Positions 13,846 to 21,668 of a stretch of 64,000 nt of DNA are shown in pieces. Both the position numbers and the translations under genes were made by a program. The notes under the pieces are model-generated. The model did not search any database, was not told the origin of the DNA, and was given only the letters and a program-made list of their open reading frames with translations. How positions within the stretch are numbered: the first letter of the stretch is position 1; every line of letters begins with the position of its first letter. The stretch lies in assembly GCF_055900595.2 (NCBI RefSeq), contig NZ_CM148325.1; one strand, 5' to 3'.

Positions 13846-15516
13846 ATGGATAATGCAGAACTCGCCATTGGTATCGATCTCGGTACTACCAATAGTTTAA
13901 TTGCCGTCTGGAAAGACGGTGCCGCGCAATTAATTCCAAATAAGTTCGGTGAATATTTAACACCATCCATAATTAGCATGGATGAAAATAATCATATTTT
14001 AGTCGGAAAACCCGCTGTATCACGGCGCACTTCGCATCCGGATAAAACGGCAGCGTTATTTAAACGTGCAATGGGCAGTAATACCAACTGGCGGTTAGGC
14101 AGCGACACATTTAACGCGCCTGAACTGTCCTCTTTGGTATTACGCTCATTAAAAGAAGATGCCGAAGAATTTCTGCAACGTCCGATTAAAGATGTGGTGA
14201 TCTCCGTTCCGGCTTATTTCAGCGATGAACAACGCAAGCATACCCGTTTAGCAGCGGAGTTAGCCGGGTTAAATGCGGTACGCTTAATTAATGAACCCAC
14301 AGCAGCTGCGATGGCATATGGCCTGCATACGCAACAAAATACCCGCTCGCTGGTTTTTGATCTCGGTGGCGGCACGTTTGACGTCACGGTGCTCGAATAC
14401 GCCACGCCGGTGATTGAAGTTCACGCCTCCGCTGGCGACAACTTTCTTGGCGGCGAAGATTTTACTCATATGCTGGTGGATGAAGTTTTAAAACGCGCCG
14501 CAGTGGCTAAAAACATGCTCAACGAAAGTGAGCTGGCAGCCCTGTACACCAGCGTGGAAGCGGCAAAATGCAGCAATCAATTACCGCTGCAAATTAGCTG
14601 GCAGTATCAGGAAGAAACGCGTGAGTGCGAATTTTACGAGAACGAACTGGAAGATTTGTGGTTGCCGCTGCTCAATCGCTTGCGAGTGCCGATTGAACAG
14701 GCGTTGCGCGATGCACGTCTGAAGCCAAGTCAAATCGACAGTCTGGTGCTGGTTGGCGGCGCATCACAAATGCCGCTGGTGCAGCGAATCGCCGTGCGTC
14801 TGTTTGGCAAATTACCGTATCAAAGTTACGACCCGAGTACTATTGTCGCGCTGGGCGCAGCGATCCAGGCCGCCTGCCGCTTACGCAGCGAAGACATTGA
14901 AGAAGTGATCCTCACCGATATTTGCCCCTACTCCTTAGGTGTTGAAGTTAACCGCCAGGGCGTTTCCGGCATTTTCTCACCGATTATTGAACGAAACACC
15001 ACTGTACCGGTGTCGCGTGTAGAAACTTACTCGACCATGCACCCGGAACAGGATTCAATTACGGTTAACGTCTATCAGGGAGAAAACCACAAAGTTAAAA
15101 ATAACATTCTGGTAGAATCCTTCGATGTGCCGTTGAAGAAAACCGGGGCTTATCAGTCGATTGATATTCGCTTTAGTTATGATATCAACGGGTTGCTTGA
15201 AGTTGACGTGCTTCTGGAAGACGGCAGCGTTAAGTCCAGAGTCATTAACCACAGTCCTGTAACATTGAGCGCACAGCAGATTGAAGAGAGTCGGACGCGG
15301 TTATCCGCATTGAAAATTTATCCGCGCGATATGCTCATCAACCGCACCTTTAAGGCCAAACTGGAAGAGTTGTGGGCGCGGGCGCTGGGTGACGAGCGAG
15401 AAGAGATCGGCCGGGTGATCACCGATTTTGATGCGGCGTTGCAGTCAAACGATATGGCCCGCGTCGATGAAGTTCGGCGACGGGCGAGCGATTATTTGGC
15501 TATTGAGATCCCTTAA
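13846..15516 (+). CDS. hscC: Hsp70-family chaperone HscC (Hsc62)
   Basis: 556 aa; Hsp70 ATPase motif IDLGTTNS near the N-terminus, DLGGGTFD, substrate-binding domain. Confidence 0.95.
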   Translation: MDNAELAIGIDLGTTNSLIAVWKDGAAQLIPNKFGEYLTPSIISMDENNHILVGKPAVSRRTSHPDKTAALFKRAMGSNTNWRLGSDTFNAPELSSLVLRSLKEDAEEFLQRPIKDVVISVPAYFSDEQRKHTRLAAELAGLNAVRLINEPTAAAMAYGLHTQQNTRSLVFDLGGGTFDVTVLEYATPVIEVHASAGDNFLGGEDFTHMLVDEVLKRAAVAKNMLNESELAALYTSVEAAKCSNQLPLQISWQYQEETRECEFYENELEDLWLPLLNRLRVPIEQALRDARLKPSQIDSLVLVGGASQMPLVQRIAVRLFGKLPYQSYDPSTIVALGAAIQAACRLRSEDIEEVILTDICPYSLGVEVNRQGVSGIFSPIIERNTTVPVSRVETYSTMHPEQDSITVNVYQGENHKVKNNILVESFDVPLKKTGAYQSIDIRFSYDINGLLEVDVLLEDGSVKSRVINHSPVTLSAQQIEESRTRLSALKIYPRDMLINRTFKAKLEELWARALGDEREEIGRVITDFDAALQSNDMARVDEVRRRASDYLAIEIP

Positions 15517-15520
15517 ACAC

Positions 15521-15562
15521 GGCTGCCGGATGCGGCATAAACGCTGCATTCGGCATCGGCGC
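15521..15562. repeat. REP-like palindromic element between hscC and djlC
   Basis: gctgccggatgcggcataaacgctgcattcggcatcggcgc resembles the REP consensus (gccggatgcg...); extragenic between convergent genes. Confidence 0.5.
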
Positions 15563-15575
15563 AAAAAACACATCC

Positions 15576-17027
15576 TCAGCTAAACAACATCGCGATTTTT
15601 CCGAGAGCATAACCTATCACCAGCACCGTTAAGCTGATTTTGATAATGCTGGTAATGCTCTGTGGTTTTTCATCCTCATCATTTTTTTCTTCGTGGTTTT
15701 CAGGTGTTGGCTCATCGACATCTTCATCCTCCGGCTCGAGTTTCACTTTCGTCAACAGCATCCGCGTGATAATGGCCTCTAATGGATGAGCATCTCCACC
15801 TTCCAGCCTTGTATTAAGACGGGCCAGCATCTCTTGTTTCGGGAACGCTTCCAGCACAACCTGTTCCGCTACCCGATACAAATCCAGTAACGGTGAATCT
15901 TGTTCTGTCTCGCTACCGACTCTCGATTTCCACCATGCCCATGTTTTGCGCTTGAAGAATAACGACTCAATAAACGATTGACCTAACGGCGATAATTTTC
16001 CGCTATGTAAAATTTCCGCCCATAACAGCCTCGTCCGGGCGCTCTCACCAGGAACATATTTCAGCGGCTTACCTTGCGCATCAACCATGCTTCGCGCTTC
16101 GATAACCATCACTAACAGCGCGAAGTAATCCGGGCAATGTTGCGCACTCCACTGCAGTAATAAATTATCGGCTTGTGTAGATGGATAACTTTCCCAGTAA
16201 CCACAGAGATCGGCAAGCATGCTTTCACCCTCGCCGCAGTATAACCGTTGCGCACACTGGTAATATCGGGCATCTTCACTTTCTGGTTCTTCCGTTTGCC
16301 ACTGTTGCGCTACAGAAATGAGTTCCGCCATACCTGTTTGCACCGAGCTATACCAGCGCAACAATTTGCGATGCAACTTCGCATCATCGGGAATGAACCA
16401 CGGACCTTCCATCGCCAAAAACGCAGTGACATAGTCAGGGTGATAACGGCAGCAGCGTTCCAATGCGAAGTAATACTCAACAGTCTGGTTCTGCAACGCG
16501 ACGGGATATTCCAGAAGGCTTAGAAAATCGAAACAATCCCCGGCCTGAATGGCCTCAAGAAAAGCCTCCCGTTCTTCCTCGTCCATGCCTTCACTTTCAT
16601 TAAATGAATGCCAGTTCAAACGCTCTGCCAGCAAAGAAGCACAATTTAATGAAAGATATCGCGCTTCTGTAGCGATTGCACACAGCGGCCAGCGTAATTG
16701 ATCGACATCCTCCATGTTCCAGGTATTTAATTGCTGAATAAATTTCTGCCAGGCGGAGGGCTGAAAACGATCGCTTTCCGAAGCCAGTAAGGTTCTGAAC
16801 GCTTTCAGTGCTTCGTGCTCTTCTGCAAGATTTTTCTCGTCATCAGCATTTTTTTCGTCCGGATTGACAGCCAGTCGCAGCGCCTCTTCATAGGCCTGGC
16901 GTAATGCTTTAAACCCCTGCGGATCGGTTTCGGGATGACACAACGGTAAGCGAGCAAGATAAGCCTGGCGGATACTGTCTATTTGCGTCGTGCTTTCAAT
17001 TTCGAGGATTTGCCAACATGTTTTCAT
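15576..17027 (-). CDS. djlC: J-domain-like co-chaperone of HscC with C-terminal membrane anchor
   Basis: 483 aa; N-terminus [11 protein letters not shown]...LCHPETDP (J-domain-like, HPE tripeptide); C-terminal hydrophobic tail [26 protein letters not shown]; ATG overlaps the ybeU stop (ATGA). Confidence 0.9.
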
Positions 17028-17731
17028 AGGTCGCTCACATCCTTAAGCGTTACCGGGCATTCAGGCTGGACAATTAATGGCTGCCAGGGAAGCGTGGCAT
17101 AGAAACGATCGCTTCCCGCTGCCAACTCCTCGAACATCCGACTCCCGGCGTTATCGTATTTGTACAGGGTTAGCGCCTCGCGTAGCGAAGCGTTGTCTTC
17201 ACACTGGGAAGATTGCCAGTAGAGACGTCCTAATGAATAGGCGGCAAAATAGTGAATCCAGCTGTGATAATAATGGTGAGCTCGTACATAAACGCGCGAT
17301 TGCAGCCATAAACTCTCTTCTTCCGTCAGCCAATTGTTGAGCACACCGACCCGCGATAAAAACCCCATCCGCACATAATCCCAGGCTTTGATTCCCCCTT
17401 CCCCACAACACATAGCGGTTTGGGCAACGAATTGGGTATAAATCAACCCTCTCTCCGAGCCGCCAGCAATTAATGTTTTCCACTCTTCAGGGGAAGAGCG
17501 ATGCCATGTCAGATATAAGCCAGCTAAATCATTGGCATGACCATCATCGGTCATCTGATAAATAGTCTGAATTAAATCATCACGATTATTTATTCCCCAG
17601 GATGATGAGAGATCGAATTCTTTTATCCCAGTATACATTTTTGGCGAGTCATGCGCTGGCTTGCAACCCTGATTAAGTATTTCCATGGGTGCAGAAAGCG
17701 CAAAAAGAAGATATTGTTCTTCCTTATTCAT
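17024..17731 (-). CDS. ybeU: DUF1266-family protein
   Basis: 235 aa; paralogous to the downstream ybeR product (shared blocks FALSAPMEI / [41 protein letters not shown]). Confidence 0.85.
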
Positions 17732-17831
17732 TTGTTAATAATCCCTTAAGTGCATTAACTGACTACTTTTTTATTATCGATGAGTATAAACTTGACGTTT
17801 TCAAAATAAAAGAAAATAGAAGTATTCATGC

Positions 17832-18386
17832 ATGAATAAAAAATTAATATATATATTCGCAATATTTATAGTTGCGGCAATTACCTGTATTAGCCAACCC
17901 AACAAAACGACCCTGCGCGATAAAGCTATGGCGAATTATGTCTTTGATTATTTAAGCTCACCGGGCAGTCTTCCGTTTACCACGGCAGCAACAGAGCTTT
18001 CCGCCATTCATGGTCACTCAACGTCGCAATATAGACTTGGCGAATTTTATCTTCATGGTAGCGATGGTAAGCCTCTGGATTATACAAAGGCGAGATACTG
18101 GTATGAGCAATCAGCGGAACAGGAAAATCCACGCGCGCAAAGTCAACTGGGATGGATCTACCTGAAAGGTTTGGGAGTCAATCCCGATACCCGTAAAGCA
18201 ATTCTCTGGCATAAGGAAGCAGCTGAACAAGGGCATGTTCATGCACAATACACGTTGGGTTTGATCTACAGAAACGGCACGGGCATTAGCACCAACAATT
18301 ATGAAGCTCGCAAATGGTTAGAACTGGCGGCAGAGCAACATTATAAAAATGCGGAAAGATTACTTGCAGAGCTTCCCGCACATTAA
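17832..18386 (+). CDS. ybeT: Sel1-repeat (TPR-like) protein
   Basis: 184 aa; N-terminal signal/TM segment followed by Sel1-type repeats ([30 protein letters not shown]). Confidence 0.85.
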
Positions 18387-18395
18387 CGTCGACTT

Positions 18396-19823
18396 TCACC
18401 CGAACAGATGAAGTATTTTCCCTATCAAACCGGCAAAGATAAAAATATAGAAAATAATTTTAATGATGCCCAGACAGCCCGGCCCACCATCGTCAACGGG
18501 CATTGGCTGCGGTTGCGGCTCCGGCTTGACGGTTTGTTGCCCGGCAAAATTCGCCGACTGAATTAATAATCGTCGAATTATTAATGCGTCCAGAGGACAA
18601 CGATCTTCTGCATCAAGGCGGGCGACGATCGGCATCAATGATTCTTCTGTCGGTTGGCTGGTCTTCACTAATTGTTTAGCAACTAAATATAATGGCCATA
18701 AGGGATGTTCTGTATCACGCGTGAGTGAGATTCGCGGCTTACGCCCTTTGTGCAAAACCATCTCAACCAGAGAACGCCCCAGCGCAGAGAGTTTCTCATC
18801 GCTGAGTATTTCGTATAATTGAAAGCGCGTACGCGCACTGTCGCCAGGAACATAAAGTAACGGTTTCCCCTGATCGTTAACCAGTTCACGTGCTTCAATC
18901 ATCATCACGACTAACGGGTAATAATCGACCCGATGCTGACGGCACCATTGCAACATTAATACATCTGCCTGGGTCGAGGGAGACTCGCGCCAGAAGTCAC
19001 AAAGTTCTGCCAGCAAGCTTTCGCCTTCTCCACAATAGACGCGTTGCGCGTATTCATAATAACGCGCATCTTCATTATCAGGTTCAGTTTCCCGCCATGA
19101 CCGGGCGTAGTCCAGGAGTTCGGGTATTCCCAGGCGGACTGCGCTATACCAGCACAGTAAATTTCTGTGCAGTTTTACATCATCGGGGATAATTACCGCA
19201 CGATGTTGCGATAAATATAATGTCAGCCATTCTGGATGCGATGACCAAATCCGCGCGAACATTTGGTAAAAATCAATGGTTTCATTTTGCACGGCAACAG
19301 GCAGATGCAGAATGGTCTGGAAGTTAAAAACATTCCCCTTCGCAATGGCATATAAAAAGGATTCCAGTTCTTCTTCGTCTATTTCCCCGGTGTTTTCCTC
19401 CTGTCGCCACCGCAATCTTTCTGCTAATAAAGCCACGCACTCGAAGGATAAATGGGCAGTGTTCATGGCTATTGTGCACAGTGACCAGCGTAATTCATCA
19501 ATATCTTCCATCGAGCAATAATTTAATTGCTGAATGAATCGCTGCCAGGCAGAGGGCAGAAAACGTTCGCTATCAGAGGCGAGTAACGCACGAAAGGCGA
19601 ACAGTATTTCATGTTCTGCAACTTCATGTTCTTCTGGTTGCCAAACAGATTTAGCAGGCGACTGCGCAATCCGTAGCGCGTCCTCATACGCCTGACGAAG
19701 TTGTTTAAAACCCTGCGGATCGGTTTCTGGATGAAAGGACGGTAACAGCGCCAGATAAGCGCGGCGGATAATATCGACTTCAGTCGTTTCCTCTATTTCG
19801 AGAATCTTCCAGCAATTTTTCAT
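18396..19823 (-). CDS. djlB: J-domain-like co-chaperone with C-terminal membrane anchor (DjlC paralog)
   Basis: 475 aa; N-terminus [36 protein letters not shown]; C-terminal hydrophobic tail; ATG overlaps the ybeR stop. Confidence 0.9.
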
Positions 19824-20527
19824 AGGTCGCTCATATCCTTAAGCGTTTCCGGGCATGCAGAATAGTAAGCCAATGGTTGCCAGGACAAGGTAGGGTAATA
19901 CGCATCATCACTGGCAAATAATTGATAAAACATATCATTGCCGGAATCGTCGTATTCTTTACGCGCTAAAAATTCACGTAATAACTGAAGATTATCATCT
20001 TCGGGAGACTGCCAATATTGCCGACCAAAGGTATAACCGGCAAAGTATTGCTGCCAGTTACTATAATAACGTAGCGCCCGTAGATGAATGCGCGACTGGA
20101 TCCATAGACTTTCTTCTTCGCTCAACCAGTTATTAAGTACGCCCATTCGGCTTAAAAAACCCATCCGGACATAATCCCAGGCTTTGATTCCCCCTTCGCC
20201 ACAGCATTCGGCGGTGCTGGCGACAAATTGCGCATAAGCCTGACCTTGCTCATTTAGTTCAGCAAGATAATCACGCCATTCACATGGAGAATAACGAAAC
20301 CAGCGGTGATAAAGCCCTGCCAACCGAGCGGCATGACCGTTATCGATCATTCGGTGAATTGTACGCAGCAGGTCATCACGGTCATCAATTCCCCATGAGG
20401 AAGAAAGGTCAAAAAAGCATGTACCTAAATACATTTTGGGGGATGAATGCGAAGGTAAACAGCATTCATTGCGTATTTCCATCGGAGTGGAAAGTGCAAA
20501 CAATATTTTTTGCGACTCCATGTCCAT
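19820..20527 (-). CDS. ybeR: DUF1266-family protein (YbeU paralog)
   Basis: 235 aa from the ATG at 20527 ([18 protein letters not shown]); the ORF track extends 12 codons further upstream. Confidence 0.85.
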
Positions 20528-20690
20528 ATAATTTATCCTTAAACATTCATTTAATGAATACAAACTACATTGCGAGACTCAGTTATTTATACTTTTCTGA
20601 CGCAACATAATACGCATAAAATAAGGCTTACGCAAAAATGGAATACATAAAAATATAATATGTTTTATCTACAACCATAAGGAAATGATA

Positions 20691-21668
20691 ATGATTTTTA
20701 CGTCAAGTTGCTGCGATAATTTATCAATAGATGAGATTATCGAACGTGCTGAAAAAGGCGATTGCGAGGCTCAATATATTGTTGGGTTTTATTATAATCG
20801 CGATAGCGCAATTGACTCTCCGGACGACGAAAAGGCCTTTTACTGGCTGAAGCTGGCCGCTGAGCAAGGTCATTGTGAAGCACAATATTCCTTAGGGCAA
20901 AAGTATACCGAGGATAAAAGCCGTCATAAAGATAATGGGCAAGCCATCTTTTGGCTGAAAAAAGCTGCCCTACAAGGCCATACTTTCGCTTCCAACGCCC
21001 TTGGCTGGATACTGGATCGTGGAGAAGACCCCAACTATAAAGAAGCGGTTGCCTGGTATCAGATAGCCGCGGAGAGCGGAATGTCTTATGCGCAAAATAA
21101 TCTTGGGTGGATGTACAGAAATGGCAACGGAGTCACACAAGATTATGCGCTGGCATTTTTCTGGTACAAACAAGCTGCATTGCAAGGCCATAGTTACGCA
21201 CAAGACAATCTGGCCGATCTTTATGAAGACGGTAAAGGTGTTGCCCAAAACAAAGCTCTTGCCGCATTCTGGTATTTGAAAAGCGCACAGCAAGGTAATC
21301 GGCACGCTCAATTTCAAATTGCGTGGGATTATAACGCTGGCGAAGGGGTTGACCAGGACTATAAGCAAGCAATGTACTGGTATCTGAAGGCTGCCGCTCA
21401 GGAAAGCGTCGGCGCTTACGTTAACATCGGCTATATGTATAAACACGGTCAAGGCGTTGAGAAGGATTATCAGGCCGCCTTTGAATGGTTTACGAAAGCC
21501 GCTGAATGCGATAATGCCACTGCCTGGTATAACCTTGCCATTATGTATCATTACGGAGAAGGAAGACCTGTCGATCTCCGACAGGCTCTCGATCTGTATC
21601 GTAAAGTTCAGTCATCCGGTACCAGGGATGTCAGTCAAAAAATCCGTGAGATTGAAGATTTACTGTAG
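20691..21668 (+). CDS. ybeQ: Sel1-repeat protein
   Basis: 325 aa from the ATG at 20691 (SD aagga, 7 nt spacing); multiple Sel1 repeats (AQYSLGQKY, AQNNLGWMYRNGNGV, AQDNLADLYEDGKGV and others). Confidence 0.85.
   Translation: MIFTSSCCDNLSIDEIIERAEKGDCEAQYIVGFYYNRDSAIDSPDDEKAFYWLKLAAEQGHCEAQYSLGQKYTEDKSRHKDNGQAIFWLKKAALQGHTFASNALGWILDRGEDPNYKEAVAWYQIAAESGMSYAQNNLGWMYRNGNGVTQDYALAFFWYKQAALQGHSYAQDNLADLYEDGKGVAQNKALAAFWYLKSAQQGNRHAQFQIAWDYNAGEGVDQDYKQAMYWYLKAAAQESVGAYVNIGYMYKHGQGVEKDYQAAFEWFTKAAECDNATAWYNLAIMYHYGEGRPVDLRQALDLYRKVQSSGTRDVSQKIREIEDLL

Follow-up and report, generated by a model that had tools for sequence, protein, structure and literature searches.

Near-identical overlapping junctions of two paralogous DUF1266/J-protein gene pairs are probably conserved sites of translational coupling

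The window analyzed here, a 64,000-nucleotide stretch of contig NZ_CM148325.1 (assembly GCF_055900595.2), carries two paralogous gene units on its minus strand, ybeU-djlC (U) and ybeR-djlB (R), each consisting of a DUF1266 gene followed by a J-protein gene. Two nearly identical blocks mark the junctions of these units. The conservation pattern suggests that the blocks are probably the translation-initiation regions of djlC and djlB lying inside the ends of the DUF1266 genes, where coupled translation would be maintained under dual constraint. All features are listed in Table 1.

Results

Both DUF1266 products scored above the Pfam gathering cut-off for PF06889 (152 bits for ybeU and 158 bits for ybeR, cut-off 27), with a profile that spans residues 41-216 and leaves the conserved C-terminal tail outside it. 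For ybeR, the list of open reading frames also held a longer TTG start at 20563, which RefSeq does not use. Matches of djlC and djlB to Pfam DnaJ were weak (20.8-21.1 bits, 20.8 for djlC) and fell under the 27.8-bit cut-off; the DjlB and DjlC orthologues have precomputed matches to PF27158 (DjlB_C_2nd), and the RefSeq names are djlC and djlB.

Table 1. Features of the two DUF1266/J-protein units, in window coordinates
Feature	Position	Strand	Basis and remarks
djlC, tail-anchored J-domain co-chaperone gene	15576..17027	-	ORF of 483 aa; K-12 orthologue is co-chaperone DjlC; downstream gene, unit 1
ybeU, DUF1266 gene	17024..17731	-	ORF of 235 aa; Pfam PF06889, E = 2.3e-44; K-12 orthologue is ybeU; upstream gene, unit 1
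Invariant 44-nt run	17008..17051	-	-24 to +20 from the djlC ATG; seven Escherichia lineages
Conserved block, ybeU/djlC junction	17021..17065	-	41/44 bases shared with 19817-19860
ATGA, djlC ATG over ybeU TGA	17024..17027	-	Direct reading of the sequence; 4 nt
Candidate weak hairpin CGCUUA-AGGAUG-UGAGCG, SD core in loop	17032..17049	-	RNAalifold; not supported as conserved
SD-like UAAGGAUGUGA for djlC, within ybeU codons L-K-D-V-S	17035..17045	-	Complementary to the 16S 3' tail
djlB, J-domain protein gene	18396..19823	-	ORF of 475 aa; K-12 orthologue is djlB; downstream gene, unit 2
ybeR, DUF1266 gene	19820..20527	-	Pfam PF06889, E = 3.5e-46; RefSeq K-12 CDS of 708 nt; upstream gene, unit 2
Conserved block, ybeR/djlB junction	19817..19860	-	41/44 bases shared with 17021-17064
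ATGA, djlB ATG over ybeR TGA	19820..19823	-	Direct reading of the sequence; 4 nt
SD-like UAAGGAUAUGA for djlB, within ybeR codons L-K-D-M-S	19831..19841	-	Anti-SD duplex energy

The near-identical blocks were found where the initial annotation had placed them, with a gapless match of 93% between positions 17021-17064 and 19817-19860, as compared to codon-aligned nucleotide identities of 63.1% for ybeU/ybeR and 56.1% for djlC/djlB. Read on the minus strand, the ybeU/djlC block is CTGAATGCCCGGTAACGCTTAAGGATGTGAGCGACCTATGAAAA and the ybeR/djlB block is CTGCATGCCCGGAAACGCTTAAGGATATGAGCGACCTATGAAAA; each contains the last ~13 DUF1266 codons, a Shine-Dalgarno (SD)-like UUAAGGAuGUGA, the ATGA overlap and the first J-protein codons. 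When the two units were compared in 2,086 windows of 44 nt, the mean was 25.8 +/- 5.8 matches, and at least 41 of 44 matches were reached only at the junction and in one other block, located in the middle of the DUF1266 genes (17363-17407 / 20159-20203, up to 42/44). The expectation that the junction would stand out in a sliding-window comparison was thus borne out in that it forms a clear peak above the rest of the units, but it is not the sole peak, the mid-gene block being as high. This second peak is explained mainly by protein conservation and possibly by micro-conversion.

The conserved, structured C-terminal tail of the DUF1266 proteins accounts for a large share of the 93% block identity. 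The tail CPxTLKxVSDL (CPxTLKDxSDL in the two blocks) is conserved as protein across Enterobacteriaceae homologues and was modelled confidently (pLDDT 88-93, helix at 227-232); when the YbeU model was compared with PDB structures by Foldseek, no meaningful match emerged (E > 1, TM < 0.25). The conservation and modelled structure of the tail favor a constraint on protein alone, in which the amino-acid sequences of the tail and the J-domain start would be what is conserved, with codon sharing due to chance or codon bias, as do the equally high mid-gene peak and the probability of ~0.07 obtained for the run of 9 shared codons in a genome-pair scan. However, when codon pairs were drawn at random from elsewhere in the genes and matched by amino-acid class, 28.4 +/- 2.5 matches were expected, against 39 of 45 observed at the junction (P ~1e-5), so the identity goes beyond what protein conservation alone predicts. 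Codon usage alone likewise accounted poorly for the codon sharing (P = 1.3e-4). Several shared codons are rare, which led us to discard codon bias as the cause; rare codons among the conserved ones are CTT (9.6% of Leu), CTA (2% of Leu) and AAG (22% of Lys).

The junction was then compared among 21 junctions from Escherichia, Citrobacter, Salmonella, Klebsiella, Leminorella and one metagenome contig, extending to 40-44% protein identity. Diverse junctions were gathered through protein matches and their encoding contigs, and a scan of genome contigs with an N-terminal peptide pattern gave 4 loci. The 4-nt ATGA overlap was kept in all 21 junctions, as was an SD-like purine run at the same codon register (-6/-5). 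The residues encoded at -6/-5 differ among these relatives (KD, KA, KG, KE, QE, RG and AE) while the SD is retained, and a change from AAG GAT to AAA GGA preserves AAGGA; retention of the SD under varying amino acids speaks against a constraint acting on protein only. Wherever the flank could be seen, an HscC-type Hsp70 adjoined the DUF1266/J-protein pair. Of 4,277 E. coli genomes, 3,769 carry the 60-nt junction with an identity of 99% or more, whereas identity over the 5.3-kb region is ~93.6%. Across seven Escherichia lineages, in which 24.6% of the sites of the U unit are variable, its longest invariant run was the 44-nt stretch at the start of djlC. In size, this run around the djlC AUG is similar to a ribosome footprint.

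Synonymous conservation across the family pointed to the same place. Over the final 11 codons of DUF1266, the same-codon fraction was 0.68, versus a mean of 0.46 +/- 0.07 over the ~700-codon unit, and junction windows ranked 1, 2 and 4 of 634 (P = 0.0012 with random column sets), where the P values are approximate since the sequences behind the statistics are related. That this conservation peaks exactly at the junction further weakens the protein-only explanation, which we consider improbable. Of the readings offered in the initial annotation, a constrained translational-coupling element agrees with these results, the ATGA and the SD-like site being conserved in position throughout and synonymous constraint being stronger at the junction than anywhere else in the unit.

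The SD motif inside the 3' end of each upstream gene reads UAAGGAuGUGA in both units. The optimal spacing between SD and AUG is 5 nt, and that of djlC and djlB is longer; the SD is imperfect, with an aligned gap of ~9 nt between the last base of UAAGGAUGU and the AUG. Duplex energies with the 13-nt tail were -11.6 kcal/mol for djlC and -8.3 kcal/mol for djlB. With the 9-nt anti-SD they were -6.8 and -5.9 kcal/mol, respectively, weaker than the -8.4 kcal/mol threshold for a 'strong SD' (PMC6728339). Each of the two sites nevertheless pairs better with the anti-SD than 98.7% of the synonymous recodings of the same peptide. Across the family, duplexes with the 9-nt anti-SD ranged from -5.5 to -11.6 kcal/mol; the mean was -7.66 kcal/mol versus -3.54 kcal/mol for synonymous recodings, and 14 of 14 representatives were stronger than their recoded mean. 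Other sites with anti-SD pairing as good as that of the junction SD occur elsewhere inside the genes.

The codons ACG (Thr) and AGC (Ser) beside the SD core are synonymously invariant, for which SD pairing alone offers no obvious explanation. A conserved hairpin (CGCUUA / loop AGGAUG / UGAGCG) that shows or hides the SD, and thereby gates djl translation, for example by blocking de novo initiation and making coupling strict, would account for both codons. This hairpin was also the only consensus structure found, and local structures that block de novo initiation have been hypothesized for overlapping gene pairs of E. coli (PMC6728339). The structure is weak, however, with an RNAalifold consensus energy of -4.65 kcal/mol and a covariation term of +0.28. 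Its covariation score of 0.092 was below the shuffled mean of 0.107 (329 of 500 shuffles at least equal), and its 6 pairs held a single, doubtful double change as compensatory evidence. Pairs are broken in loci L004 and L012, where synonymous positions vary; L011 and L013 lack the hairpin and retain the SD. Neither junction was significantly more stable than shuffled sequence in 71- and 121-nt windows (fold z-scores of +1.00, -0.12, -1.26 and +0.21), and no Rfam match at E <= 1 was obtained in the scanned region 15400-20800. Consequently, the suggestion of an RNA-structure element found no support, and gating by this hairpin appears quite improbable. A consensus scan for promoters and terminators gave none at either junction, with a total under the shuffle expectation.

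Local gene conversion between the paralogous units, another origin proposed in the initial annotation, would have homogenized the junction recently. In quartet comparisons with Salmonella, a concerted pattern was indeed observed at the junction and the J-domain (~5-6 vs 1-2 sites per 90-nt window), and the short mid-gene block looks lineage-homogenized in E. coli. The junction block groups by orthologue, which argues against conversion there: over 48 nt, U matched the albertii U at 47 positions and R matched R at 44, whereas U matched R at only 42, and the Citrobacter and Salmonella paralogues were less alike (34-39/48). Differences between U and R (GTA/GCA vs GAA, GTG vs ATG, ACA vs AAT) persist from one Escherichia species to another, and genomes with a single copy, such as Klebsiella spallanzanii (L004), share the same core sequence. 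With differences that follow the orthologues in this way, the junction can be explained without gene conversion, which we regard as highly improbable there.

Discussion

Altogether, the junctions appear from their sequences to be of the ordinary translational-coupling type rather than a new element. In E. coli, an ATGA overlap combined with an intragenic SD leads to tight termination-reinitiation coupling, and removal of the SD usually cuts reinitiation by 60-100% (PMC6728339). Overlaps of this type are enriched among subunits of heteromeric complexes (PMC10666635). The proposed initiation region would lie within the last ~8 codons of ybeU and ybeR and would comprise the SD-like UUAAGGAnGUGA, a spacer of 7-9 nt and the AUG, whose A would be shared with the last sense codon and whose UG would be shared with the upstream UGA stop (AUGA). 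A ribosome would end the DUF1266 protein at the UGA overlapping the J-protein AUG, SD/anti-SD pairing would hold it there, and reinitiation on the J-protein gene would follow, so that the amounts of DUF1266 protein and J-protein would be coupled. The bases concerned also encode the structured C-terminal tail, and the junction would thus carry two constraints at once. Such a double constraint would suppress synonymous change, and may have kept two ancient paralogous copies ~93% identical while the rest of the units drifted to 56-63%.

As the striking block would be explained by an ordinary mechanism, further work on it as a novel RNA element or repeat is not warranted. Rather, ybeU-djlC and ybeR-djlB can be described as conserved, probably translationally coupled pairs, and they offer a clean example of a downstream ribosome-binding site that shapes codon choice, and possibly also the choice of residues (K-D/E), at the C-terminus of the upstream protein. 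Additionally, they provide a testable hint that the uncharacterized DUF1266 proteins work at a fixed ratio to DjlC and DjlB, the co-chaperones of HscC. Strict conservation of the ATGA junction down to 40% identity, together with the adjoining HscC-type Hsp70, may mean a DUF1266/J-protein partnership. It is conceivable, although we lean against it, that DUF1266 proteins are obligate, stoichiometric and co-translationally assembled partners of membrane-anchored DjlB/DjlC-type J-proteins, and hence an unrecognized component of the HscC chaperone system. If so, the C-terminal helix TLKDVSDL would emerge as synthesis of the J-domain begins. DjlB and DjlC were under detection in exponential phase (PMC8215388).

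The junctions can be placed alongside three known situations. Concerted evolution by gene conversion of duplicated bacterial genes, such as tufA/tufB, gives local peaks of identity between paralogues. The mid-gene DUF1266 block alone resembles this case in hinting at lineage-specific homogenization, whereas the junction pattern is orthologue-specific and common to single-copy genomes. A second situation is that of regions in which a coding sequence overlaps the ribosome-binding site of its neighbor, where enterobacterial codon-usage studies find reduced synonymous divergence. As in those regions, a downstream SD and start constrain the last upstream codons and rare codons are tolerated; unlike in those regions, the constraint at the junctions appears as a paralogue-to-paralogue identity peak that coincides with a conserved protein tail. 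The coupled pairs of Huber et al. 2019 (PMC6728339) and 2023 (PMC10666635) share with the present units co-directional genes, an ATGA overlap, an SD in the upstream 3' end and an overlap kept among orthologues, and ybeU-djlC and ybeR-djlB plausibly encode interacting partners as well. They differ in that the SD here is imperfect and rather far from the AUG, that coupling is read from sequence, and that two paralogous copies in one locus keep the same junction.

Organization of the hscC locus

The region corresponds to the Escherichia hscC locus, with a gene order identical to that of the E. coli K-12 annotation. Pfam assigned YbeU and YbeR to DUF1266 and Sel1 repeats to YbeT and YbeQ; the DnaJ matches of DjlC and DjlB were sub-threshold only. 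Across 5.3 kb (15400-20700), the window shared ~93.6% identity with K-12 and the majority of E. coli genomes and 96.2% with the best E. coli match (strain EC42405), and thus derives from a somewhat divergent Escherichia lineage. Some E. coli genomes (H26-H29; 61% query coverage) keep hscC-djlC-ybeU-ybeT and are missing the djlB-ybeR unit, and ~1,000 of 5,426 genomes had no match to the locus, which is therefore a presence/absence polymorphism.

Features of the hscC locus in the window
Feature	Coordinates	Strand	Remark
hscC	13846-15516	+	
djlC	15576-17027	-	
ybeU	17024-17731	-	
ybeT	17832-18386	+	
djlB	18396-19823	-	
ybeR	19820-20527	-	
ybeQ	20685-21668	+	followed by ybeL and leuS
ybeU/djlC junction block	17021-17064	-	
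ybeR/djlB junction block	19817-19860	-	
Mid-gene block, ybeU	17363-17407	-	
Mid-gene block, ybeR	20159-20203	-	
Shine-Dalgarno (SD), ybeU	17735-17755	-	CUUAAGGGAU
SD, ybeR	20530-20548	-	UUUAAGGAUA
Mini-ORF AUGUGA	17035-17040	-	U junction, third frame
Tail-anchor peak, djlC	about 15580-15650		
Tail-anchor peak, djlB	about 18400-18470		

Compared with window positions 15576-21668, the architecture varied among the loci L006, L007, L008, L004, L012, L011 and L013. In Escherichia the Sel1 gene ybeT sits between both DUF1266-djl units, and in Citrobacter- and Salmonella-type loci the two units are directly in tandem. One unit was present in Klebsiella spallanzanii and L012, and likewise in Leminorella and the metagenome contig, where the J-protein is ~900 aa long. 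An HscC-type Hsp70 gene adjoins the unit in the window and in L006, L007, L008, L004, L012 and L013; no Hsp70 gene was called within the 12.7-kb Leminorella locus (L011).

Sequence identity at the gene junctions

The near-identical blocks described in the initial annotation at the ybeU/djlC (U) and ybeR/djlB (R) junctions were located at its coordinates, matching at 41 of 44 bases without gaps, and the surrounding paralogous coding sequence was indeed more diverged (codon-aligned identity of 63% for ybeU/ybeR and 56% for djlC/djlB). Each block, read on the coding (minus) strand, comprises the last 13 DUF1266 codons, a 4-nt ATGA in which the ATG of djlC or djlB overlaps the TGA stop of ybeU or ybeR, and the first J-protein codons. 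The junction was far above the paralogue mean of 25.8 +/- 5.8 matches per 44-nt window, as had been claimed, but it was equalled by a block inside DUF1266 encoding a 15-residue peptide. Since these two places, and only these, reached at least 41 matches, the junction is a true yet non-unique peak.

Codons were shared at 46.5% (ybeU/ybeR) and 39.6% (djlC/djlB) of identical degenerate residues, and at 9/9 of the last nine identical DUF1266 residues (C, P, T, L, K, D, S, D, L). When codon pairs matched for amino-acid class were resampled from elsewhere in the genes, they yielded 28.4 +/- 2.5 matches per 45 positions; 39 were observed (P about 1e-5). Codon bias was rejected as the cause, as the shared codons include rare ones (CTT, AAG and CTA, at 9.6% of Leu, 22% of Lys and 2% of Leu codons, respectively, in the window's long ORFs) and codon usage alone gave P = 1.3e-4 for the ten shared codons. 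The junction identity is thus real and statistically supported.

The mid-gene block matched at up to 42/44 positions, and at 47/51 over the 15-residue block. It showed no family-wide synonymous conservation (same-codon fraction 0.41-0.52), and its peak therefore reflects strict protein conservation and lineage-specific codon sharing. Here, E. coli U and R were closer to each other than either was to its E. albertii orthologue (41-42/51), with GCG common to albertii U and R and GCC to coli U and R. Judged from these sequences, the mid-gene block may mark a short tract of gene conversion specific to the lineage.

At the junction, homogenization by local gene conversion, one of three explanations originally offered, was not supported. 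Within a 48-nt block, orthologues matched at 47/48 and 44/48 positions versus 42/48 for within-genome paralogues, and U/R differences were orthologue-specific throughout Escherichia species. Citrobacter and Salmonella paralogues were further apart (34-39/48), and single-copy genomes carried the same junction core. Quartet sites supported U and R unit orthology with Citrobacter (135 against 52 and 51) and were ambiguous with Salmonella.

Conservation across relatives

DUF1266-to-J-protein junctions gathered for comparison (21)
Source	Locus	Junctions
This window		2
E. coli K-12	L001	2
Other Escherichia species	L002, L003, L005	1 each
Escherichia contig with protein P0049 (named E. fergusonii by NCBI)	L009	2
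E. albertii	L010	2
Citrobacter-type genomes	L006, L007	2 each
Salmonella	L008	2
Klebsiella spallanzanii	L004	1
Enterobacterales genome	L012	1
Leminorella richardii	L011	1
Metagenome contig	L013	1

The ATGA overlap was present in every junction, including those where protein identity falls to 40-44%. Thirteen representatives were codon-aligned (634 windows across both genes): the same-codon fraction among identical residues was 0.68 for the last 11 DUF1266 codons versus a mean of 0.46 +/- 0.07, junction windows took ranks 1, 2 and 4, and 0.68 was reached by random 11-column sets with P = 0.0012. No stretch of the ybeU-djlC unit stayed invariant for longer across seven Escherichia lineages than the 44 nt spanning -24 to +20 relative to the djlC ATG. 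Of 4,277 E. coli genomes, 3,769 matched the 60-nt junction at 99% identity or better, against a divergence of ~6% in the surrounding region.

The third-highest synonymous conservation across the family (0.63-0.68; alignment columns 512-526) was at the 3' ends of djlC and djlB, in the C-terminal tail-anchor segment (IIKI...). This peak may be compositional, given few comparable pairs and Ile/Phe/Lys-rich codons.

Constraints on the junction

Within the junction, cUUAAGGAuGUGAgc is similar to UAAGGAGGUGAUC, the sequence complementary to the 3' tail of 16S rRNA, and anti-SD duplexes were predicted directly upstream of the J-protein ATG at all junctions. The residues at codons -6/-5 from the end of the DUF1266 gene differ (KD, KA, KG, KE, QE, RG, AE), and the G-rich purine run holds register in every variant: AAG GAT becomes AAA GGA in the Citrobacter and Salmonella U units, retaining AAGGA, and the run is CAGGAGGUGA in the Salmonella R unit, GGAGGU in Leminorella and AAGGAG in the metagenome contig. 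Against 2,000 synonymous recodings per peptide, anti-SD pairing was stronger than the recoded mean in 14/14 representatives (means of -7.66 versus -3.54 kcal/mol; individual P 0.002 to 0.21). The ATGA overlap demands an A at the end of the last DUF1266 sense codon, which is always NNA (CTA, TTA, CAA or TCA). The SDs of the leading genes share the flavour of the internal junctions, so that all four starts use UUAAGG(A/G)AU. The U junction also holds a start-stop mini-ORF within the SD region (GAT GTG), whose ATG has as its R counterpart an in-frame Met codon of ybeR.

The encoded DUF1266 tail, CPxTLKxVSDL, is kept in Enterobacteriaceae homologues and loosens to P-x-[ST]-L...[DE] in distant ones. 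It lies outside the Pfam profile (residues 41-216). An all-alpha AlphaFold model of YbeU, built from 38 sequences (pLDDT 88.3, pTM 0.88), positioned it with confidence and folded residues 227-232 into a short helix. Because it is conserved and confidently modelled beyond the profile, the tail is probably also constrained as protein, which would make the junction block a dual-constraint region. A Foldseek search of the model against the PDB returned nothing meaningful (best E = 1.7, TM < 0.25); DUF1266 appears to be without a solved structural relative.

An RNA-structure element, also suggested initially, was not borne out: fold z-scores ranged from -1.26 to +1.0 and Rfam gave no match across 15400-20800. 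The sole consensus structure was a 6-bp hairpin (CGCUUA / AGGAUG / UGAGCG, -4.65 kcal/mol). Its covariation term was positive and its covariation score was below that of shuffles, its pairs break wherever synonymous positions vary, and distant members that retain the SD do not have it; the hairpin is thus not supported. It may still play a minor part in Enterobacteriaceae, where it would explain why the ACG and AGC codons are invariant.

Probable translational coupling

Of the explanations offered, translational coupling is the one favoured by the ATGA overlap in 21/21 junctions and the SD held in register; by this sequence evidence, ribosomes ending YbeU or YbeR would reinitiate on djlC or djlB. 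Coupling depends on an overlap or a very small gap between the genes, and subunits of heteromeric complexes are unusually often encoded by such pairs (PMC10666635). DjlC and DjlB are membrane proteins with a tail anchor and are present in very low amounts; DjlC stimulates HscC, and DjlB is assumed to do likewise (PMC8215388). The only wider interest is a hint that DUF1266 proteins may be fixed-ratio partners of DjlB/DjlC-type J-proteins. In E. coli reporters, ATGA overlaps with an intragenic SD give tight, usually SD-dependent termination-reinitiation coupling, and this is the commonest layout of co-directional prokaryotic genes (PMC6728339). The junction adds one more ordinary example, not described before, to this well-known architecture.
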